A DNA stretch of 11,952 nucleotides from Amoebophrya sp. A120 (lineage: Eukaryota > Protista > Dinoflagellata), in contig CAJINV010000074.1 in assembly GCA_905178155.1 (NCBI GenBank), positions 1 to 11,952 of the forward strand. Reading direction: 5' to 3'. A program made the position numbers and the translations under genes. The notes beneath the pieces are model-generated. The model was not told where the DNA came from and did no database searches. It saw only the letters and a program-made list of their open reading frames with translations. The number at the start of each line of letters is the position of its first letter. Positions within the stretch are counted from its first letter, which is position 1. Shown here piece by piece: positions 1 through 11,952 of this stretch.

Positions 1-41
1 GCATCACAAGTTTCCAGACCCAGACATTTTTACATTTGATA
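1..41. mobile_element. Element 1, family A, right end only (truncated by the window)
   Basis: TTCCAGACCCAGACATTTTTACATTTGATA at 12-41 matches the family A right TIR. Confidence 0.85.
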
Positions 42-3000
42 GCTGTCCTGCGAAAACGACTCTCCCCGGGCAAATTTTTCCGACGCGGCCAGGTATTATC
101 CTGAGGAAAAACGTGCCCACCCCATAGTCAAGTTGGGATTGGGAACTTAGCAATACAAATCCAGAAGTTTTGGGAGCACCGCATGACAAGTTGCAGTCCG
201 TAGGTTGTAGTGCAGGTTAGCAACGGAAACCGCATCAAAAATCCATCTGCTTATCGTGTGTCCGGCATTACAAATACCAAAACACGACTGGAAATGCCTC
301 TCTTGGGGATGCGCACTGCAGATGTTCCTGTAGTCGCAAATCTGCATGACAACTCTGGGGTGGGGACATTTTTACACAGAATACGTATTTCGCCAGGTTT
401 CGCCCCGTCAAAACGTAGGCGTCGCGAATCGACTGGGAAAAGGACACTTGCCCGTATTTCTTGAAAATCAAGGAGAAAGCGCTTTGGTCGTCGTTGTGAT
501 TCTTAAACCCCGGGAAATTCGGAAACCCCAATACGTTCGGCTCTTCTGTCAGAATCCGTTTATCCTGCACGGCTTCCAACCACTCTTCTAGGATTTTGAT
601 CGCAAGGGGAGTCTTGCGCACGAGAATGATGCCGGACCCAATTTGATTCGATTCGGCGATGGTGGTGTAGTCCATGTTGAGAATATGGGAAGAAAAAAGC
701 ATTACAGTTACACACTGTGATGTTGCAAGACCGGCACCACAGACAGCCTTTCTCATGCAGGAAATGCTTTGGATTCTCATTCCCTTCCTGTGTTCCACCT
801 TTATGTTTCCTGCATTCCAAGTTTTCTCTCTCATGCAGGGAAAATTTGTGCTGCGGAATTGACAACAAATGTGTAACTCTAACTGTAACACTTTTTTCGT
901 GGGATAGAGAAGGAGGAACGCGTCGCGCTTCGTGAAATCGCCCTCCATCATGGGGTATCAACTGCAAAAGTGTCTGGGTCTGGAAACTTGTAATGCTGTG
1001 TCGGGAATAGTGAAAGCTCTGTAATGCACAGGCAAGCATGAGAAATATCTGCGCTTCTTCGTGTTGCGTTTTTCGCATGACAAACTGCGTTTTCGCATGA
1101 CAGGCAAAAGGGTCTGTCTCTTCTTGGACACGCATCACAAACTTTTCGGTCATGCCAGACAAGCATGACAAATCTCGCAATCTTCCAGACCCACACGTTT
1201 TTGCATTTGATATCGGGGTTAAGGTGGCGGACACGTCGGAACCCCGGAGGTAGCGGGCTATGAAGTGCAAATATGTCTGGGTCTGGAAGGATGCAAGTTT
1301 TGTCATGCAGATTTTGTATGATCCATGCCGCCTGTGATGCATGACCTAGCATGATCGCAGCTTTTGAGGGAGCTTCCTTATGCATATGCCTACTTAATCC
1401 GCATGAGAAATGCCATCTCCGTGTAGCAGAAGCAGTAAACTGGGCTCCTGTTGCCAGTCATACAATACAGATTTTTTTACGATCCAAGGACAGCATCACT
1501 AGTTGCAACGTTCCAGACCCAGACATCTTTGGAGTTGATACGGGCGACTAACGGACGGATGTCGTCGAGAAAGGAGATGCCTGGTAGAAGTCGACGGTGT
1601 AATTCAATCTAAAAATCAATATCAAATTCAAAATCGTACAGAAAAAATAAGTGCACAGTAGAAGCCAAGCTAAAGCCAGCTAATCTTTGTCAGGCAATTA
1701 TTAATCTTCTTTGTGTTGAAAGTCAGCATCGCACCGGACGAAGGGGTGCATTTGTGACTTTTCAAATGTTGTCATCATGATAGTTAAAAATCCGTACAAC
1801 TAAACATAGACGAAAGTTTGTTGAAAGAACCGCTCTATATTCATTTTTCAGATCTCGAATCTTTCTGATAGTCACCACACAATAGCAGCGGATGGCGAAA
1901 AAAGCCTCCCGCTCCTGATTGTCAGAGACAAAATGCGTGGTATCTCAAAAAAGTGTCATCATGCGAGGTGGCACATGTGGTCGTATGGTCCTTGCGGTTG
2001 CGTCGATTCTTTACGTATAATATAAAGCAGAGCAGCTGTGACTAACGAAAAGTGGCGAGAATGTATAGCAGATGAGAAGCGAACAGGTGCAACTGAATCT
2101 ATTAACTATCCGCTGCTAGAAAAACTAAAACTTTATTTCCTTGCATGATTTTCATTTTTGGATCCTGCGCACGATATGATAGAGATAGACATTGAACAAG
2201 TAGTTGTCATAGATTGATAAGAGGTCAGTACAACTTCCGCCAGGAGACAAAGAACGTATCTATCATGTGAAAATCTGTAAAATCATACCTGCGTCGGTCC
2301 ACACGAGTATTTCATTTTCCTTCACTTTCTCCCTCAAGGCCTTGAGAATCACGTACGGTTTCCAAACGTAGTACCCCACTTTCCCGCTCGGCGTTTTGTA
2401 CTGGGTCAGCTCCTATGAAATGCAAAAGTGTCTGGGTCTGGAAGAATGCAAGTTTGTCATGCTTATCTGGCATGACTCGAGAATCTGTGTTGCATAGGCA
2501 CGACAGGGCCCTCTTACCTGTCATGCAAAAACGCAGTTTGCCATGCGGAATACGTAAGACATGGCAGCCAAAAAATTTGTCATGCGTAGCTGCGTGCTGC
2601 AGTGCGTCTATCATTCACTTTTAGCATTACAAGTTTCCAGACCCAGACATTTTTGCATTTGATAGCTCCGGAGTGCGGACGTACTCTAGAAGCTCCTTAT
2701 TTTTCACTATCCTGGGTAAAAACGTCCCCACCCCAGCGTCAAGATGGGGAACCTGTGACGCAAATCAGCCAGCTTCGGCTGTTCTTGCGCATGACATCAA
2801 GTTTGGCCTCGTAGTGTAAAAATCCTGTGCGTTTAGCTAGTTCACCAGCGTCACAGATCTGAAATCGCATGCTGATTGGAGCATCACACGAGGACCCGAG
2901 ACTCAATTATAGAAAATGCTTCTCATGGGGCTCCGCATGAGAAACATTTCAAGCATGCAGATTTGCATGACAACTATGAGGTGGGGAAGTTTTTCTTCAG

Positions 3001-6000
3001 AATATTCGCCGTGAACTCTTCATCCAGATCTTCGGCCACCATCCCGTAGGAAATGTCGCACTTTCCGACGGCCACTGCAGTTTCGGAGGATTTTTTCTGG
3101 TCCTCTTCACAGCAATTCATGGCGAAATTTACATGGACAATTCTCTCGTTGGTCAGGAACTCGGACCCCGGCGGCGTGAAGGAAATTTCCGTTTTTGTAG
3201 TAGCCGCGGGAAGAAGAGAATTCGCCCACGCGGCCTGTTTTTTTTTTTTTTTTGGATATGATGTTGATCCACCTGCTGGATGTCCCGGTTGACAAAAGAG
3301 CCCGAACAACCGATCGCGACTCCAAACAAAAGCAGCCGAACTCACGCCAGAAATACCGTCCGACTTTCATCGTGTTTGACCTTTCCACCTCTTCAAAATG
3401 TATCGCATTGAAAAGCTTTTGTTGCTGCCTTCACAACACACAGCGCCCGCGCCCAGAAAAAACCCGAATCAGGTGCGGTTTGTCTCTACGAGTGCGCACT
3501 TGCACACGACTTGAGGAGGTGTTGGGAAGGCAAAAAGCAACCCAAAATCCTGCCAGAAATGCCGTCCGAGTCAGCTCGTGTTTGACCTTTCCACCTCGTG
3601 GAAATTATCACAGAGAAAAGTTTATGTTGCGGCATTCACAAAGACAACAGATCGCGCCCACGAAAAACCCGAATCAGGTGCGGTTTGCCGACAAGGGCGC
3701 GCACTTGCACATGACTTGAGGGGGTGTTGGGAAGGGAAAAAGCGACCCGAAGTCCTTCCAGAAATACCGTTCGACTCCCCTCGTGTTTGAGCTTTCCACC
3801 TCTTGAAAATTATCGCATTGAAAAGTTTGTGTTGCGCGCTTTTCTTTTCAATAGCAATTTATTTTGAAAATTGGCCAGGGCCGGGCGGGACTGCAATGTT
3901 CCCGAAAAAATTGAAAGAAAACGAACCTCGTGTATGAGCGTGCACAGGCGGCTGGCAGGAACGGCCAAGACAAAATTCGGGATGAGGTCGTTTTTGCAAA
4001 ATTGGCGATAGCCGTGCCTAGCAAAATGCATTGAAAAATTCAAAAAAGACGCGCCTCGCGGGCGAACCCGGACAGGCGCGCGGCAGGAACGGCTAAGACG
4101 AAATTCGCGATGAGGTCACTTTTACAAGATTAGCGATAGTGTCACCATTAAAAATGCACTGAAAAATGGAAAAAACACGCACACTGCGTTTGAGGTCGGC
4201 CGGGTCACCGGCAAAAAGTGCAGACCTCAAGAACACCAAAAAGCCCGCCCGTGCCCTCCCCCGACCGCGGCTATCCGGAGCAAAGCCTTTGCGTTTGCCC
4301 GAGCAAATGATAATGATCTTCTATAGGCCACAAAATAAGACGAATGCGTGGCAACACAACAATGAAGCAGTTGTACTTCTTTCCCATATCATGTTGACAA
4401 ATACCTTTTTCTTCTTTCCCGAAGTTCTACTACCGCCCGCTGGACCTTCGGAGTTGTCTTTTCTCCTCACAATTTTCGTCCCAGTGCTGGCAGCACTGCT
4501 GACCCACTCAAACGCCGCCTTCTCCCCGTCTTTCTCCACCGAGGTTATCAGCGGCGTTTATGCATTGCAAATGTGTCTGGGTCGTCTGGAAACTTGTGAT
4601 GCTGGGGGCGTATCATGAGGAGGCCACAAGTGCTGGCTCAGCATGACAAGTATCTGAGCTCCTTCTACATGTTGTCTATTCTGCATGACAAACTGCGTTC
4701 TTTCTGCATGACAAAATTATGGAGCTCTTGGGTAATGTGCACGAGAGATTTAAGAGTCAGGCCAGACAAGCATGACAAACATGCATTCTTCCAGACCCAG
4801 ACATATTTGCACTTGATAGCGTTGCGTCCCGGACGAAACACTGCCGGTCGTTCTGCTCGAACAGATATCCTCTGCAAAAGCATCGTACTTGTAGTAATCG
4901 CATTTATGCATGACAAATATCTTTTTCAAGGTAAATCAACATGAGAAATTCAATTTGTCATGCTGAGCAAATTTGTAATGCGATTACTACTAGATCTAGA
5001 ACTAGTGCGATGCTTCTGCATTTCATAACAGAGCCGCTTCGTTCGCCGCGGTCGCGTGTAGCACGTTCTCGATGTTTGGTCCGTCGCACGTCACGCCGCC
5101 ATATCAAATGTAAAAATGTCTGGGTCTGGAAGACTGCAAGATTTGTCATGCTGATCTGGCATGGCCCTTAAATCTGTATTGCGTGGCCACAAACAGCCTC
5201 TTCCGCCTGTCATGCAAAAACGCAGTTTCTCATGCGGAATAAGCAGCACAGAAGCACGAAGCAACTTGTCATGCTTGACGGCGCATTACAGTGCATTTGT
5301 TATTGACTGACTTGCATCACAAGTTTCCAGACCCAGACATTTTTGCATTTCATACACCACACACGTCCGCACCCAGCTGCGCGCACAGGTTCATCGCGTG
5401 CTTCAACGATTTAAACTTGTAGTCCTCGAGATTGACCACGCTGCCCGCAAGCGAAACCTTGTCGTGGATTGCCCAACCGTTAATGTAGCGCGACGTTGTA
5501 CTAGCACTTCTTGGGGCGGATGAAGTAGAACCTGTTCCAGCTGCAGCAGTTCTTGTGCCACTACTGCTCTCAACAGAGGGAGGCACAGTCGAACTACTGC
5601 TCCCTACTCGAGTTGTGTAAGAATCCGTTGGGTAAGAAGCGGAAGGCGATACGAGAGAGTTCCACTGCTCGACGTAGCCCTTATGCATTGCAAAGGTATC
5701 GCATTCGTATAGATTTAAATGCATTGCAAATTGAAATTTCCTCAGCATTTGTAATGCATATTTGCCTTGGAAAAAAGATTTGTAATGCAAGACTTGCATT
5801 TGTATGAGTACGATACTTTTGCACAGGATAGCCCTCCATCGGGGTAGTCACGTTCCCGGGCGTGCTATGACAGTGCACAACTTTCCCTCCCCCTCACTTG
5901 TCATGCAAAATCCCAAATCCAGTCGCTCTCGCTTCCCTGTGGCTCTGTTTGCATGAGAAATTTCGAAAACCCAAACAGTACTACAGTAGGCACATAAATT

Positions 6001-9000
6001 TGCAATGCACGGGCTCCAGGGTCGCTGGCGTTTGTATTGCTGTTCATGCGATACACATGAGAGGGAGGGGGAGTTGTGCAGTGTCATACGTGCTCGGTGC
6101 GGCGTAGTAGGACTTCCAGGTCCGTCTTCGGGGCGACACACTGGACCTCGACACCCGGATCGGGTGGTTTGCCGGGCCGATATGCGGTTCTCAGGCGTTG
6201 CACTCTCATGATTTGTCATGCAAAAAGACTATCACTCGTCACACGATCAAGCCTTCTTCGCATGCCAACTTCTCGCTGCGCTAAATACCGCCAGAACAAT
6301 CTGTCCGCCAAAATCTGTAATGCAAAAGGCGCAAGAATCTACTTCCTCCTTTCACTTTTGCCATTCTTGCATTACAAATTCATGATGTAACTGAGAATCT
6401 TCCCATAGCCGATGGTCCCGCTGTAGAGGATATCGTAAATCCGGTGTCGCTCATGTTCCGACATGAGTTTTTGAAGCGAGAAAAACACGATGTTCTCAGA
6501 TTTCCCAAACCACCCGTCGGTAGTGACGAACGTGTTTTCCGATTCGTAGAAGTGGATGAAAAACAAGTGGTAGTGAAGAAAATCGTCCTCTGCGAAGGAA
6601 ACCGTCGGCACCCGATCCGTCATGAAGGGGCCGAAACAGAGCCGGTCTAAAGCCCGCGGTAAGTACGTGAATGGGAAGAAGTAAACCAGGGACAACAAAT
6701 CGGTCAAAAACAGCAACCCGCGGTTCGATCCTTTCACGGCTAACAAGTCCATCCCTCGGGTTTTGTGCGGATTGAAGAATTCCGTTTCGACATTGACGTC
6801 CTTTACCCACAGGTAGGGGAACGGATTCCGGACCCAGAAGTGACTGATAGAAACGTACGCCATGTCCATCCCTGCGAGAACGCCGATCCGCATGTAGCCG
6901 AGAACGGACAAGAAGCTGGAGGATTCGGACAACTTCGGTAAACACATGTATTTCTCCAAAGTGTGGTCCAGTTTGGACAACTGCCCGGACGCGACCGACT
7001 TGCACTGCAAATCCAGGCTGTTCTGCTGTTGCGGATCACTGGACAACACGATCCCCAACCCCCCCTGCTTCATACTGTATTTCGCCCGGCGGAGCCAGTT
7101 TTTCAACCAAGTAATGCTCCCCTTATCGACGCTGGTCAAGACGATCCGGTTATTTCGCTGAATTTTCGACAACCGCCAGTAGATCTCGTTGTTGTCCTCT
7201 TTGGTGAGCACCCGCTTCTGCAGGATCTGGGCCTGCATTTCCTCGGTTATGGACGATTGTGGGATAACGTTGACGGCGTGCGGTTTGGCTTGACTGGAGT
7301 TGGGGTCTCCGGAGGAGTTCTGTGCGCTGCTATCTGTGTTCGCATTGCTTGGGTGCACCGGGTAGTCGCTACTACCGTCATTTTCGTTGTAAAATTCGTC
7401 TTCATCTTCCGGTTGCTTAGCCGATACAGACGGTGTGGTGGCGTCCGAGACAGAGCCAGAGGCCGCTATATTCCCACCGGATGATAACGGCATCACCGCT
7501 TCGTCTCGTATGATCCCCGTTTCGCCCTCCGTCCCCTCGTTCTGGTAGTCTGCGTTGTATCAAATGCAAAAATGTCTGGGTCTGGAAGAATACAAACTTG
7601 TGATGCGCATTTCAGCACACAGAAAAATCTCTGATGCATAGGTAGCAAAAGCTGCCCACTTTCTGTCACCAAAGTGGGGGATTTGTCGTGCGCAGTCGGC
7701 ATTGCGGAAGCTTTTCGAAACCTGTGATGCTAGAGCTTCCATGCCAGACCTTCTGCGTCATGCAAAAACAGCATGACTCTTGCAGACCCAGACATTTTTA
7801 CATTTGATACGTTGGAGACCGCTTCCATTTCCATGGGTTTTTTGATCAACTTAATGATCGACTCTTTCACCTGTTCGGTGTAGAGCCCCATGTCACCCAC
7901 CCGCCAGTCCCAGGGGTTCTTCGAATCCATATATTTCGGTGGAGAGTCTAAATCGTCGGTCAACGCCGCTTCCGGCAGATCCAATTTTTGCTTCTTCATC
8001 TCGTTCAATAGATGAACAATCCCAAAGAGCCGCCAGCGGGAATACAGCAATTGGTGCTTCCGGTTCCATATAAAATGCAAATATGGCTAGGTCTGGGAGC
8101 TTGTGATGCAAGGAAGGGAATTATAGGGAGCACACTGATGCATTATTTAATGCGCTGCCAAGCATGACATAGTTTTTCCGTGGTTCTGAGTTGCGTACTC
8201 CGCATGAGAAACTGCGGCTTTGCATGACACGGAAGAGGAGCTCATCTTCGCGGCCACGCAGTACAAAGCTCAGAGTCAACATGCCAGACCAGCATGACAA
8301 CTCTCGCTACCTCCTACCAGAGCACCCAGACATATTTGCGATGCTTATTCCAGATCTGCTCGATCTGCTGGAATCCCCGCTCCAACATGCGGTAAACATC
8401 GCCGTCGGAAAGTAGTATCGCGAACATGCGGAGCGCGTTGGCGGCGATAACGCCGAATGGACACTGGTTGATGACGTCGGAAATGGTGGAGGAAGTCGCA
8501 CTATCAACTGCAAATAGAAATATGTCTGGCTCTGGAAGAGTGCAAACTTGTATTGCGTGTCGAGGAGTCCAGAAAAATCTGTATTGCATGAAAGCAACAA
8601 AAGCGCCACAGTTTGGTGATCAAAAAATACAGTCTGTAATGCGTACTAAGGATGAGAATGCTACACTACTCTTACAGACGCAGTCACTCATGGCCATTCA
8701 GCATCACAAGTTTCCCGACCCAGACATTTTTGCAGTGCATACGCACTGTGCTCTACACTGCTCTGCGACTTGAAGATCACCCCGTCCGCGTGGCTTATCG
8801 CCCACCCGTATCCTGTGTAAAGACGTCTCCTCCCCAGGGTTGTCATGCAAATCTGCATGCTGAAAATGTTTCTCATGCGGAGCCCCATGAGAAGCATTTT
8901 CCAGTGGTGTTTTGGAATTTGTCATGCTCCAATCAGCATGATATACTAGATCTGTGATGCTGCTGAGCTAGCTCAAACAGCATTGCACTACGGGTCCAAA

Positions 9001-11202
9001 TTTGTCATGCAAAACAGCCAAAGCCTGTGGATTTGCCTAGCCGAGTCCCCATCTTGACTATGGGGTGGCGAGGTTTTTGCATAGGATAACCCGAGGCTGG
9101 TTCGGTCGGTTTTCGTTTTCTTTTCCAACAGCCACTCGTTCGCTTCGGTCTTTCCATTGCAAACATGTCTGGGTCTGGAAACTTGTGATGCAAGGAAGGG
9201 AATAATGATCTCACTGTAATGCGCTGCCAAGCGTGCCATGTTTTTTCGTGGGTCTGAGTTGCGCATCCCGCATGAGAAGCTGCATTTTTGCATGACAGAG
9301 AGGAGGAGCTCTTCGCGGCCACGCAATACAGAGCTTAGAGTCATGCCAGACTAGCATGCCAAATCTCGCAATCACCCAGACCACCCAGACATATATGCAT
9401 TTGATACGGTCACCCCCGTCGCCAAAGCCCCCCGGAACTCGTTCCATTCGATCACATTCGGGTCGGGAGATAAGATATGAACTGCAAAAGTATCGCACTC
9501 GTACTAATTACATTTATGCATTACAAATCTTTTTCTTACTCTTAGGGTAAATCTGCATGGCGAATTTAGTTTGTAATGCTGGGCTAATTTGTGATGCAAT
9601 TTATACTAGTACGATGCTTTTGCTTTGCATATAAGATGCAGTCGTCGGCGTTGTCGTCTTCTAAAAAAGTTGGCTTCCCGGTCGCGGAGTCCACGCTGTC
9701 CCAGATTTTCTGTTGCTCAATGTCGAGAAGCTTCAACACCGGCCATTGGGAGGACATGAGAAGGTAGAAATCGGTCGGGATGTGGTAAAAGCAATCCCGG
9801 ACACTGTCCATCGACTCCGCGCCCACGCTATGCTGTGCAAAAGTATCGCACTCGTATAAATGCATTACAAATCTCCTCAGCATGAGAAATAAAATTTGTA
9901 ATGCGAAATTGCCTTAAGAACAGGATTTGTAATGCATGAGTGCAATACGAGTACGATACTTTTGCACAGGATACACGCAGGCGACGAGTTTTCCCAGCGG
10001 GCACCCGGGGATTTGCATATCACATGCAAAAATGTCTGGGTCTGGAAGAATGCAGACTTGTCATGCATATTTCTCATGACCCATGACGCCAGTAATGCTT
10101 GACCTAGCATCGCAGACTTTTAGAGGGCTTCCTGATGCACCTTCCGCATGAGAAATGCCCTGTCCGTGTAGCAAAAACTAAAACTATCCCCCTCTTGCTG
10201 GTCATGCAATACAAATTTTTTTAGAGTCCAAAAACAGCATGACAAGTTGCAATCTTCCAGACCCAGACATTTTTACAGTTGATATTGCAAGGCGTAGCGG
10301 GAAACGTGGTAGTCGGGGGGTTCGTTTTTCGCCACCGCGTCGGAAACGAGGTTGAGGTATTTGGTCCAAAAGGGGTCTTCTCGTACGCAATCGGGGTCGT
10401 AGAACTGCCGCCCGACGTTCGTAGCGGACGCGGTTGTTGCGACAAGCAGGGATAGTACTGGCAGGAGATGTATGAAATGTAAAAATGTCTGGGTCTGGAA
10501 GGTTGGAACTTGTCATGCTAAATCTGAATCATGTAAAAATCTGTGTTGCATGAGTGCCAAAAGCTGTCCAGTTTTGACCTAATCGAGAGGCAGTTTCTCA
10601 TGCAGGATAGGCATGATAGAACTCTCACGGAATCTGTCATGCTATGTCCTCCATACCAGAACTCATGGGTCATGGAAAACCTGCATGACAAGTCTGGCAT
10701 TCTTCCAGACCCAGACACTTTTACATTTGATAAGATGCTGGAGTAGTCCCCTGCTTGCACATAGGAAAAATGTTGATCCACCACGACCTATTGCTCCTCT
10801 TCTTGGTTTTTTCCTTCGTCCGTTCGTCTGACAGTCGTTCCTGTGGAAGTTGTCCACCTGCTCGTCCCGCGATAGCATTTCTCGGTCGTGTAGGCCCCCG
10901 CTGCATCTTGAAGAAGATGCAGTCATCTTTGTGCAATTGGCACAAGAAGTAGCTCTCGCAGGCGCGGTTCTTGCAGAAGCCGCAGCACTTGTAGCTGTAG
11001 TTGCTCTCCTCTCAGCTGAACAAGACGAGGTAGGACTAGTACGAGAGACGACCATGCGACAGGAGGTTTCATCCACGACCCCCAACATCGCCGCTCGCTT
11101 CCGACGTTTGCGTCTTGCAGTAGAAGCTCCGCCTGTTGTTCCGCCAGGACAAGAACTGCGTGAGGACAGTGTAGATGATGGTGATGCAGCTCCTGTACTC
11201 AT
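42..11202 (-). CDS. Large 24-exon gene (at least 1390 aa, 3' end beyond the window): probable membrane-anchored multi-domain glycosyltransferase-like protein
   Basis: Exons in transcript order, each including both flanking TSD copies (one 5-bp copy is dropped per element): 11202-10733, 10470-10285, 10017-9974, 9828-9632, 9475-9407, 9150-9089, 8808-8742, 8501-8348, 8068-7810, 7557-6408, 6180-6089, 5865-5831, 5681-5355, 5101-5028, 4865-4819, 4558-4405, 3234-3005, 2707-2665, 2413-2289, 1580-1541, 1258-1213, 955-907, 683-384, 96-42. Total 4275 - 21x5 = 4170 nt = 1390 codons with no stop. The ATG at 11202 is in AAAATG context with an in-frame TGA two codons upstream. Junctions rebuild coherent sequence, e.g. 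LLQHL|LPVLSLLV, CAQLGADVCG|GVTC, EEFTA|KNKELL, VWTDA|GISFLDDIRPL, FTKRDAFLLL|NMDY. Confidence 0.9.
97..383. mobile_element. Element 2, family B introner/MITE, 287 bp
   Basis: TIR TATCCTGAGGAAAAACGTGCCCACCCC ... GGGGTGGGGACATTTTTACACAGAATA; TSD GGTAT/CGTAT (1 mismatch). Confidence 0.88.
684..906. mobile_element. Element 3, family D introner/MITE, 223 bp
   Basis: TIR TATGGGAAGAAAAAAGCATTACAGTTA ... TAACTGTAACACTTTTTTCGTGGGATA; perfect TSD GAGAA; removal gives FTKRDAFLLLNMDY. Confidence 0.9.
956..1212. mobile_element. Element 4, family A, 257 bp
   Basis: TATCAACTGCAAAAGTGTCTGGGTCTGGAA ... TTCCAGACCCACACGTTTTTGCATTTGATA; TSD TGGGG/TCGGG (1 mismatch). Confidence 0.9.
1259..1540. mobile_element. 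Element 5, family A, 282 bp
   Basis: Family A TIRs; perfect TSD CGGGC. Confidence 0.92.
1581..2288 (-). other. Canonical GT-AG spliceosomal intron, 708 bp
   Basis: Donor CAG|GTATGA at 2289/2288 and acceptor TTCTACCAG|GC at 1581/1580; AT-rich; splicing rebuilds ILVWTDAGISFLDDIRPL. Confidence 0.88.
2414..2664. mobile_element. Element 6, family A, 251 bp
   Basis: Family A TIRs; perfect TSD GCTCC. Confidence 0.92.
2708..3004. mobile_element. Element 7, family B, 297 bp
   Basis: TATCCTGGGTAAAAACGTCCCCACCCC ... GAGGTGGGGAAGTTTTTCTTCAGAATA; TSD TTCAC/TTCGC (1 mismatch). Confidence 0.88.
3346..3839. repeat. Diverged tandem repeat, about 205-206 bp unit, about 2.4 copies
   Basis: CCAGAAAT(A/G)CCGT...CGTGTTTGA(C/G)CTTTCCACCTC recurs at 3347, 3553 and 3758; AAAAACCCGAATCAGGTGCGGTTTG is present in both full copies. 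Confidence 0.9.
3944..4182. repeat. Diverged tandem repeat, 128 bp unit, about 2 copies
   Basis: ACAGGCG...GGCAGGAACGGC(C/T)AAGAC(A/G)AAATTCG(G/C)GATGAGGTC...AAAATGCA(T/C)TGAAAAAT starts at 3944 and 4072. Confidence 0.85.
4559..4818. mobile_element. Element 8, family A, 260 bp
   Basis: Family A TIRs, the left one with a 3-bp duplication (GGGTCGTCTGGA); perfect TSD GCGTT. Confidence 0.92.
4866..5027. mobile_element. Element 9, family C, 162 bp
   Basis: TATCCTCTGCAAAAGCATCGTACT ... AGTGCGATGCTTCTGCATTTCATA; perfect TSD ACAGA. Confidence 0.92.
5102..5354. mobile_element. Element 10, family A, 253 bp
   Basis: Family A TIRs; TSD CGCCA/CACCA (1 mismatch). Confidence 0.9.
5682..5830. mobile_element. 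Element 11, family C, 149 bp
   Basis: TATGCATTGCAAAGGTATCGCATTC ... GAGTACGATACTTTTGCACAGGATA; perfect TSD GCCCT. Confidence 0.92.
5866..6088. mobile_element. Element 12, family E, 223 bp
   Basis: TATGACAGTGCACAACTTTCCCTCCCCCTCA ... TGAGAGGGAGGGGGAGTTGTGCAGTGTCATA; perfect TSD CGTGC. Confidence 0.92.
6181..6407. mobile_element. Element 13, family F (degenerate TIRs), 227 bp
   Basis: TATGCGGTTCTCAG...CATGATTTGTCATGCAA ... TTGCATTACAAATTCATG...CTGAGAATCTTCCCATA; perfect TSD GCCGA; removal keeps the frame (SGTIG|PANHP). Confidence 0.85.
6620..7160 (-). other. Degenerate nucleotide-diphospho-sugar transferase (GT77 / PF03407-like) domain
   Basis: IVLTSVDKGSITWLKNWL...IVLSSD...C...GMDMAYVSISHFWVRNPFPYL...LLAVKGSNRGLLFL follows the GT77 pattern (NW...D...C...GxDxxxxDxDxxWxRNPFPYL), but has SIS where DxD is expected. 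Confidence 0.55.
7558..7809. mobile_element. Element 14, family A, 252 bp
   Basis: Family A TIRs; perfect TSD CGTTG. Confidence 0.92.
8069..8347. mobile_element. Element 15, family A (degenerate TIRs), 279 bp
   Basis: TATAAAATGCAAATATGGCTAGGTCTGGGA ... CCCAGACATATTTGCGATGCTTA; perfect TSD TTCCA. Confidence 0.88.
8502..8741. mobile_element. Element 16, family A, 240 bp
   Basis: Family A TIRs, the left one with a short insertion; perfect TSD CGCAC. Confidence 0.9.
8809..9088. mobile_element. Element 17, family B, 280 bp, inverted relative to elements 2 and 7
   Basis: TATCCTGTGTAAAGACGTCTCCTCCCC ... GGGGTGGCGAGGTTTTTGCATAGGATA; perfect TSD ACCCG. Confidence 0.92.
9151..9406. mobile_element. 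Element 18, family A, 256 bp
   Basis: Left end TTTCCATTGCAAACATGTCTGGGTCTGGAA (TTT instead of TAT); perfect TSD CGGTC. Confidence 0.9.
9476..9631. mobile_element. Element 19, family C, 156 bp
   Basis: TATGAACTGCAAAAGTATCGCACT ... AGTACGATGCTTTTGCTTTGCATA; perfect TSD TAAGA. Confidence 0.92.
9829..9973. mobile_element. Element 20, family C, 145 bp
   Basis: TATGCTGTGCAAAAGTATCGCACTCGTA ... TACGAGTACGATACTTTTGCACAGGATA; perfect TSD CACGC. Confidence 0.92.
10018..10284. mobile_element. Element 21, family A, 267 bp
   Basis: Family A TIRs; perfect TSD TTGCA. Confidence 0.92.
10471..10732. mobile_element. Element 22, family A, 262 bp
   Basis: Family A TIRs; perfect TSD AGATG. Confidence 0.92.
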
Positions 11203-11439
11203 TTTTCAGCACTGTGGCGCGGCCCCCGAAGCCGTGCTGCTAATTATTTTTACAAGTGTTTCGGCTTTAATACAGCAACGCTCCATGACAGTTGGTTGTT
11301 GCAGCGGCCATCTTGCTGCGAAGAGAGCGGGCGCACAGGTAAGAAAAAAGCGCAAGGGGTCTAGATGTAGATGATGACTCGGGCCGACAATAGAAACATG
11401 CACGTGGTGATCTTACTTTTACTGAACAAGCTAGAGCAG

Positions 11440-11952
11440 AGAAATCTGCATTGATGCGGATTCGATCTTGCATCTAAACGAAAAGCCAAAAAAAGTAGTC
11501 TTTTTCCGGGCTACTAGTTTTCGACTACTTTATTTCCCACCACGCCCAGAGGAAAGAAAACCAGCCGAAGAAATGGCCACATCATTAACAGAATCCGCTC
11601 GGGGAAAAATTATCTCTAGAATCTGCATTGCAGATTCAATACTCATCTTGCATCTACCGAAAAAGAGAGGCCAAAGCAACCAACTTTTTTTCTCGCCGCG
11701 AGTTTTTTCTCCTCGCCGCGAGGAGAAAAAACCGCCCGAAAAAGTGGCTCGTCGACGTCGATAAGTATCCTCTACAAAAAAATCTGCATTGCAGGTTCAA
11801 TCTTGCATCGATCTAACGAAAAAGAGAGGCCAAAAAAGGTCCCGCAATTTCTCGCCGCGAGTTTTTGTGCCCCGCCGCGGGGCGAAAAACTGCAGCCCCG
11901 GAAGGGGCCCTCCCCCCGGAATCCGCTCGGGGAAAAGTCTCCTCTACAGAAA
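11440..11952. repeat. Diverged tandem repeat upstream of the gene, about 160-177 bp unit, 3 copies, likely continuing past the window
   Basis: AATCTGCATTG...ATCTTGCATC...CGAAAA recurs at 11443, 11620 and 11781; GAATCCGCTCGGGGAAAA occurs twice; units carry palindromes. Confidence 0.85.

Follow-up and report, generated by a model that had tools for sequence, protein, structure and literature searches.

The host gene and its elements

The 11,952-nucleotide (nt) window analysed here, a stretch of contig CAJINV010000074.1 of Amoebophrya sp. A120 (assembly GCA_905178155.1), a parasite of the sea that is kin to the dinoflagellates, holds one long minus-strand gene that contains 21 complete short elements bounded by inverted repeats (e2-e22), as well as the 5' end of another (e1) at the window start (Table 1). 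When each element is cut out together with 5 flanking nt, and the gene's two canonical GT-AG introns are taken out too, a single open frame of 1391 codons is obtained. In this, an earlier note on the same DNA, which held that the elements it compared share one minus-strand gene and that their removal restores the frame, proved correct, all 21 elements lying in that gene. The closest full-length homologue of the host protein comes from Amoebophrya sp. A25 and aligns to the joined frame at 57% over 1292 columns, with most junctions lying in colinear sequence. Relatives of the protein carry PF03407, a nucleotide-diphospho-sugar transferase domain; a Pfam search with five exon-bearing frames of the window gave a single weak match, under the cutoff, and an Rfam search gave no matches.

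The complete elements are 145-297 nt long, have inverted repeats that are imperfect and reach about 30 nt and, with their duplications, make up 5113 of the 11468 nt of the transcribed span. On the gene strand their ends read TAT...ATA, except that e15 starts with TAA and e18 ends with AAA; the 5' TAT is thus present in 20/21 elements, and A occupies repeat positions 11-13 in 19, 18 and 19 of the 21. Each is flanked by a 5-nt direct repeat, which is perfect in 17/21 and has one mismatch in 4/21. Terminal inverted repeats, a target duplication of fixed length and insertion in either orientation are the marks of a miniature inverted-repeat transposable element (MITE), i.e., a non-autonomous DNA transposon with terminal inverted repeats, and the elements are likely transposon-derived short introns. 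Most of them are predicted to fold arm-to-arm on both strands, while the arms of e17 are predicted to be unpaired in the sense strand.

Removal from RNA

The evidence on RNA comes from four runs of one sample and consists of contigs, not reads, whose RNA status was guessed, both GT-AG introns being absent from them as well. From the RNA-like contigs, which extend to 11508, 20/21 elements and the two GT-AG introns are missing with single-base precision. In 4/4 RNA-like runs, e2-e10 and one of the GT-AG introns are bridged by exact joints, and both GT-AG introns are at zero depth in all four. In run X1, the distances between contig pieces match the model in 6/6 intervals, spanning e3-e13 and e15-e22, and the removal of e22 is also seen from adjacent pieces in a single contig. 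For e17, the sole reversed copy of family B, removal rests on this distance test (520 = 520 nt across e15-e19) and not on a listed joint, and e14, which is bridged by no RNA piece among those listed, is supported by the frame and the homologue. In the DNA-like run X5, contigs of depth 42-49 span the element-exon borders with the elements in place, and the summed depth over the window elements is very high.

One copy, e13 (6181-6407), has arms that are out of register and no A run, yet it is removed at TAT...ATA, and as such it represents a natural test against a ruler measured from the inner stem. Raw RNA runs X9 and X10, which bear the same species label, hold diverged fragments of elements, matching 10471-10555 and 9006-9059, with other flanks and without the host gene. 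This suggests that they stem from a different strain, which shares these families and some of whose copies are unspliced or partial.

Orientation of the elements

The earlier note had described end motifs by which members of one family lie in opposite directions, and all of these motifs are present at the elements for which they were claimed, with two single-letter departures in total. In family B, the left motif is exact in e2 (at 120) and ends in TGGGG instead of the claimed TGGGA in e7 (at 2731), the right motif GCATGACAACT lies at 344 (e2) and 2965 (e7), and e17 carries both motifs as reverse complements, at 9047 and at 8838, the latter reading GCATGACAACC. In family A, GCAT(T/C)ACAAGTTTCCAG is found at 2624 (e6) and 5314 (e10), GGAAACTTGT(A/G)ATGC at 982 (e4), 4588 (e8) and 9177 (e18), and GGGAGCTTGTGATGC at 8095 (e15). 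Aligning the copies both ways shows that the opposite orientations are genuine and do not merely follow from the inverted ends. Namely, with 45 nt trimmed off each element end and a shuffle null of about 19, interiors score much higher in the opposite than in the same direction (193 vs 52 for e7/e17, 172 vs 20 for e10/e18 and 148 vs 36 for e4/e10). Both orientations occur in the window in family A1 (e6, e10 vs e4, e8, e15, e18), B (e2, e7 vs e17) and C (e9, e19 vs e11, e20), and, more loosely, in the A2 group (e5, e21 vs e14, e16, e22). The transcript lacks A1 and C elements of either orientation and, judging by the distance test, those of B as well. In this sense, removal is indeed independent of orientation, as had been proposed.

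Elements in metagenome loci

To enlarge the sample, we scanned for a 22-letter repeat motif and obtained at least 130 loci (L001-L130, 444 kb) in a public metagenome assembly (record set JACKZZ01). The loci hold the families of the window, their copies being about 70-96% identical to those in the window and numbering up to 15 per 8.5 kb. The element caller ignores the terminal three letters and requires arm similarity, so that the loci are no test of the need for a stem; on the window, it called 17/21 elements exactly and made 1 wrong call. In the loci it made 341 calls, of which we retained the 295 with at least 4/5 duplication letters matching and dropped the 46 with 3/5, given that reversed-sequence controls of 40 loci yielded 19 such calls and one with 4/5. 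A codon model, whose strand calls are right for 19/21 window elements, gave a confident gene strand for 205 of the 295, the other 90 serving as a held-out set, and calls with several end changes (1 oriented, 6 held-out) were set aside. The 205 together with the 21 window elements make up a set of 226, of which 39 are without a family.

Both TAT and ATA are present in 267 of the 295 calls. Eight families account for 169 of the 205 oriented loci elements; all eight occur both ways, and none departs from 50:50 (smallest p 0.099). Removal at the loci is inferred from the restored frame, not from RNA, and 178 of 189 oriented elements, if retained, would shift or stop the frame. The target duplications in the loci are T-poor (12-21% per position).

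Outside the metagenome, a pattern scan of viral contigs gave no matches, and one of prokaryote genomes gave one exact 20-letter repeat match, likely by chance, in an alphaproteobacterial genome bin (L131:8001-8020).

An internal motif, GCAT(G/C/T)A(C/G)A, is common to the element families in the window and the loci, at about 3.6 copies per element. There are 382 sense and 435 antisense matches, as compared to about 5 per strand in shuffled sequences, and the median first and last copies lie about 42 nt from the element ends.

Position of the cut

Perfect duplications hide the cut, so the informative elements are the four in the window with one mismatch, for which a common register was assumed. 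Counted as upstream letters inside the intron, the allowed offsets are 1-6 for e2, -1 to 1 for e4, 0-3 for e7 and 0-1 for e10, and the sole offset common to the 9 joints is 1. In other words, the intron is N-TAT...ATA-NNNN, with the cut 1 nt before the element's 5' end and 4 nt past its 3' end. What is more, e4 and e10 belong to one family but lie in opposite directions, and the offset therefore follows transcription, not the element. In e2, the choice made in RNA at offset 1 encodes Leu, the same as in the A25 homologue. At the fitted register, TAT aligns with the TAT of GTAT, the start of both canonical introns of the host gene.

At this register, none of the 21 window elements is GT-AG, while 7/205 are in the loci, which is near chance. 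The +1 letter is free (GT 54, AT 63, CT 55 and TT 32 among the 205 loci elements), with only U+2 and A+3 kept, and AG is found in 19/205 loci elements and 1/21 window elements. No register tested supplies GT or AG. We also considered co-option of GT or AG from the duplication and rejected it, both dinucleotides being at background at the fitted register in the 205 loci elements.

Variants of the repeat ends

If a stem were all that counts, the two partners of a pair should be equally prone to change, the arms should covary and G.U should be commoner than A.C in the transcribed strand; we saw none of these. Among 225 oriented elements, variants at positions 1/2/3 of the terminal triplet number 0/1/6 in the 5' and 4/6/1 in the 3' arm (p=0.007). 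The idea of polar variants came from e15 and e18; the loci were also tested alone (p=0.023), as was the subset with perfect duplications (p=0.023). In the 90 held-out calls, for which strand assignment is weak, 6/6 single end changes fit the polar pattern, and pooling them with the others gives 0/1/8 vs 5/9/1 (p=0.0001). The constrained letters are U+2 and A+3 on the 5' arm and A-7 on the 3' arm, with A-7 kept in 99.6% of the 226 elements. The variants break A+3.U-6 and U+4.A-7 from one side only, which would not be expected of a pure pairing rule. No mutation strand bias is seen in the element interiors (537 vs 541).

As for pairing, we used the 184/226 elements with an ungapped arm alignment, the other 42 being left out for poor ungapped pairing. 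In these, the arms pair in 3689 of 4232 cells at positions 8-30, and G.U is no commoner than A.C on the strand that is transcribed (122 vs 134, in 54 vs 60 elements). Covariation between the arms at positions 4-10 is absent (855 vs 855 expected); at position 14, it amounts to 158 vs 144 expected, which we put down to subfamily structure, an assumption. Beyond the triplet, asymmetry between the arms is weak and confined to positions 15 and 21 of the 30 tested.

A few further observations concern individual positions of the repeat. At position 4, both arms have C or G in about 202/205 elements, but the two letters pair in just 85/187, and position 7 pairs in 57/187. Together, they open a loop directly on the inner side of the three terminal pairs, adjoining A-7. 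Departures from the family consensus are commoner on the 3' arm at positions 15 (28 vs 13) and 21 (35 vs 13, p=0.001, uncorrected for 30 positions), and at position 21 G.U outnumbers A.C by 21 to 6.

Features of the window

Table 1. Coordinates of the host gene, its two canonical introns and the 22 elements, with the support for removal from RNA
Feature	Position	Strand	Family and orientation	Remarks
Host gene	41..11205	(-)		1391-codon open frame minus 21 elements and 2 GT-AG introns; continues past e1 and window start
GT-AG intron (GTATGA...ACCAG)	1581..2288	(-)		joint skips 708 nt
GT-AG intron (GTATTT...AACAG)	3235..4404	(-)		contig distance; zero depth in RNA-like runs; joint unlisted (masked repeat)
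e1	1..40	(-)	A	5' end, cut by window start
e2	97..383	(-)	B, orientation 1	duplication mismatch position 5; intron 93-384 under common register; joint in 4/4 runs
e3	684..906	(-)	separate small family	joint
e4	956..1212	(-)	A1, orientation 2	duplication mismatch position 4; joint
e5	1259..1540	(-)	A2 group, same way as e21, opposite e14, e16, e22	joint
e6	2414..2664	(-)	A1, orientation 1	joint
e7	2708..3004	(-)	B, orientation 1	duplication mismatch position 2; joint
e8	4559..4818	(-)	A1, orientation 2	joint
e9	4866..5027	(-)	C, orientation 1	joint
e10	5102..5354	(-)	A1, orientation 1	duplication mismatch position 4; joint
e11	5682..5830	(-)	C, orientation 2	loose end equal to joined form
e12	5866..6088	(-)	separate family	contig distance; relatives in metagenome loci
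e13	6181..6407	(-)	separate family	arms out of register, no A run; contig distance
e14	7558..7809	(-)	A2 group	frame and homologue; bridged by no listed RNA piece
e15	8069..8347	(-)	A1, orientation 2	5' TAA for TAT; contig distance
e16	8502..8741	(-)	A2 group	3'-arm insertion; contig distance
e17	8809..9088	(-)	B, orientation 2 (reverse of e2, e7)	contig distance
e18	9151..9406	(-)	A1, orientation 2	3' AAA for ATA; contig distance
e19	9476..9631	(-)	C, orientation 1	contig distance
e20	9829..9973	(-)	C, orientation 2	contig distance
e21	10018..10284	(-)	A2 group, same way as e5	contig distance
e22	10471..10732	(-)	A2 group, opposite e5 and e21	adjacent pieces in one contig

The longer of the two canonical introns contains a 205-nt unit in three tandem copies that are 80-85% alike (3336-3836), and its end on the gene strand (3235-3254) is a run of about 17 A followed by CAG, without a pyrimidine tract. 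Upstream of the gene, at about 11390-11952, lies a degenerate repeat of about 172 nt, to which a DNA-like contig of depth 560 maps and which is probably a multi-copy satellite.

Interpretation

How can these elements be missing from mRNA despite lacking the usual signals? It is likely that each of their mirror-image ends can mark the start of an intron as well as its end. The earlier note had gone further, arguing from the two orientations that the signal is the symmetric repeat pair or its stem and not a polar donor, branch point and acceptor. The first half of this argument holds: the signal sits in the symmetric ends and not in the interior, which is asymmetric, and GT and AG are absent. 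The second half, the exclusion of polar signals, is unsupported. Namely, because inverted ends give the same 5' (UAU...) and 3' (...AUA) text in RNA whichever way the element lies, finding both orientations is no evidence against polar signals, while the lopsided cut, the arm-specific end variants, the missing covariation and the missing G.U excess all speak for a signal that, although housed in symmetric ends, is read with direction.

We give about an even chance to the following account, in which the steps of a spliceosome and of branching are inferred from sequence. A relaxed spliceosome would read polar signals in the symmetric ends, with N-U-A as the donor, A-7 as the predicted branch point and the 3' cut placed by distance. 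The repeat's first two letters, occupying +2 and +3, would match the U and A of a GUA donor, and U+2 and A+3 would serve as such. At the other end, A-7 would be the fixed point and the predicted branch adenosine, and the 3' cut, 4 nt beyond the repeat, would be set by the distance from it and not by an AG. Because 1+4 equals the length of the duplication, any insertion, at any site and in either orientation, would restore the gene exactly. The inner stem, at about positions 8-30, may help to hold the ends together, without necessarily being required. A bolder version, which we offer tentatively and would on balance bet against, is a splicing code without any fixed terminal dinucleotide, shaped around its transposon: an N-U-A start, a lone branch A-7, a ruler in which 1+4 equals the target duplication and a palindromic end supplying both signals, with no U1 small nuclear RNA (snRNA), G+1 or AG.

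Some published data bear on this account (here and below, statements about cited work refer to excerpts of it). Farhat 2021 (PMC7789003) reports nearly all spliceosomal proteins and no U1 snRNA. In the other strain studied there, repeats begin with TTA followed by two purines, and Table S4 of the paper, which was derived from HISAT2 junctions, lists 18 top splice motifs for the two strains, every one of them with T at +2. The TTA repeats would also give U+2 and A+3 if the intron begins at the repeat, a start to which the TT motifs of that table point.

That said, a number of points weigh against our account. Ordinary spliceosome chemistry would not tolerate the absence of G+1 and AG, and here both are at background level (GT 54/205, AG 19/205). 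Junctions called by HISAT2 may slide to GT-AG-like ends, and because of this the published splice motifs are not independent support. The variant test is small, comprising 18 changes and 6 held out, from loci without RNA, with strands from a codon model and with possible assembly errors. If three TAC copies, which are possibly kin, are collapsed to one, p rises to 0.097 for the loci alone, and restoring one dropped doubtful call gives p=0.042. Of five changes at A-5, four are to G, which still pairs with U+2. A-7 lacks a U2-type context, YTRAY being found in 71/226 elements and in 82 on the mirrored 5' arm, so that we rejected such a branch context, and in one of the gene's two GT-AG introns the letter at -7 is C. 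The lower bound of the register depends on e2 alone, with a common register presupposed. Finally, the long stem of 23 pairs may hide selection on single pairs by tolerating lone mismatches, and in Euglena an inner stem is experimentally required (PMC12501133, PMC11282704).

This last point leads to an explanation that is also close to the one favoured in the earlier note, and which we consider rather unlikely, though the most probable of the alternatives. Namely, separate machinery of a euglenid-like kind, be it an endonuclease-ligase or a special spliceosome, could recognize the hairpin and cut 1 and 4 nt from its base, perhaps reading the terminal letters as well. The extensive pairing of the arms at positions 8-30, the predicted arm-to-arm folding of most window elements on both strands and the lack of GT and AG at any register are all as expected under such a mechanism; in the code of Euglena, too, complementary triplets are set off by spacers of unequal length and the inner part has to pair (PMC12501133, PMC11282704). 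However, the G.U excess and the covariation at positions 4-10 that one would look for in a selected stem are missing, positions 4 and 7 are mostly unpaired, the terminal pairs are broken from one side only, and both e13, with its arms out of register, and e17, with its sense arms predicted unpaired, are gone from the contigs. It is improbable, in turn, that a dedicated protein marks the element for removal by binding the ends or the GCAT(G/C/T)A(C/G)A motif. This motif occurs in 223/226 elements, in both directions within 165 of them, which would account for orientation independence, and at 15.3 per kb inside vs 1.8 per kb outside called elements. Yet it shows no strand preference and alone explains neither the fixed register nor the polar end variants; moreover, repeats in such a subterminal place are to be expected just as much if a transposase binds them on DNA.

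The two remaining explanations dispense with splicing, and we find both of them highly improbable. A hairpin next to a direct repeat is a known setting for artefactual jumps of reverse transcriptase, and one could argue that such jumps between the short direct repeats produced the joints, particularly as the four RNA-like runs represent one sample and contigs instead of reads. Against this, the dominant contig lacks 20/21 elements, the joined frame of 1391 codons is colinear with the homologue at the junctions, most oriented loci elements would disrupt the frame if kept, and poorly paired copies are skipped too. Alternatively, the elements could be excised from DNA, in a programmed or somatic manner, with the transcript coming from cleaned copies. 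Clean excision would leave just such a precise loss of the element and one duplication, and the DNA-like joints listed, 15 of 2071, leave room for rare empty sites. Still, no empty site is among these 15, the X5 contigs keep the elements at their depth of 42-49, the element-free contigs also lack both GT-AG introns, and the end variants depend on the direction of transcription.

Relation to known introns

The elements match the published introner elements (IEs) of Amoebophrya sp. A120 (PMC7789003) and are, therefore, already known. These are described as having a repeat in which TAT and seven variable letters precede a run of three or more A, direct repeats of 3-5 nt and a mean length of about 240 nt. 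The likeness includes the TAT repeat, the A run, the direct repeats, the many copies per gene, the mixing with GT-AG introns, the non-GT-AG ends, the support from RNA for removal (20/21) and the repetition in the genome, as well as the length (145-297 nt in the window vs the published mean). Where that paper describes splice sites whose place relative to the hairpin varies, with no clear signature, we find a single 1+4 register, and insertion both ways, the register and the polar end constraint do not appear in the passages in question, 'orientation' there meaning gene order. Its Table S7 counts 1954 IE families, its excerpts report no transposase in A120, and the mode of IE splicing is left open both there and in a 2024 review, in the parts covered. 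Two other papers touch upon the subject: PMC12130899 gives tens of introners per gene in A120, with no word on splicing in the excerpt, and PMC9860276 describes an introner survey whose method allowed opposite-orientation copies. In the open-access literature that we searched, nothing is said of the orientation, register or branch point in Amoebophrya, a scope outside which lie subscription papers, Farhat Figures 3 and S19-S25 and bioRxiv supplements, the last two of which may bear on the register.

Introners in either orientation with ordinary spliceosomal sites are known from Polarella glacialis (bioRxiv 10.1101/2020.10.14.339549) and, via the review PMC10228655, from Aureococcus anophagefferens. 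Like the elements here, they are transposon-derived introns with target duplications and several classes that work both ways. However, they carry or co-opt donors starting with G and AG acceptors, only some targets work and orientation is biased, whereas the present elements make no demand on the target (no G+1, no AG) and none of their families deviates from 50:50. Euglenid nonconventional introns (PMC12501133, PMC11282704) share with the elements the lack of GT-AG, complementary terminal triplets, unequal spacers and direct repeats that blur the junctions. Their signature, though, is N3-CDG...CHG-N5/6 with a purine, as compared to N1-TAT...ATA-N4 without a purine rule (115/205) here, and in Euglena, as it is described, inner pairing is needed and the introns leave as circles. 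In the tunicate Fritillaria borealis, the non-canonical introns (PMC11282704; bioRxiv 10.1101/2025.08.15.670264) are similar in that their ends derive from inverted repeats of non-autonomous transposons and, as a further likeness to our account, in being handled by a changed spliceosome. They differ in having preferred AG-AC and AG-AT ends and a preferred target, while the elements described here are unconstrained in the first letter and in the last four letters of the intron.

In a wider sense, a known but unexplained class of introns gains a specific, testable splicing rule, and the question of how IEs are spliced turns into named predictions: the register 1+4, the critical letters U+2, A+3 and A-7, and a candidate branch point. 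A tempting inference is corrected as well: copies lying both ways do not speak against splice signals that have a direction. With the register, gene models of Amoebophrya A120 can be drawn to the base. Moreover, if our account is true, it would show how far a spliceosome can relax, and it would explain how most introns of a genome could come to be filled by a transposon that favours neither a target nor an orientation.

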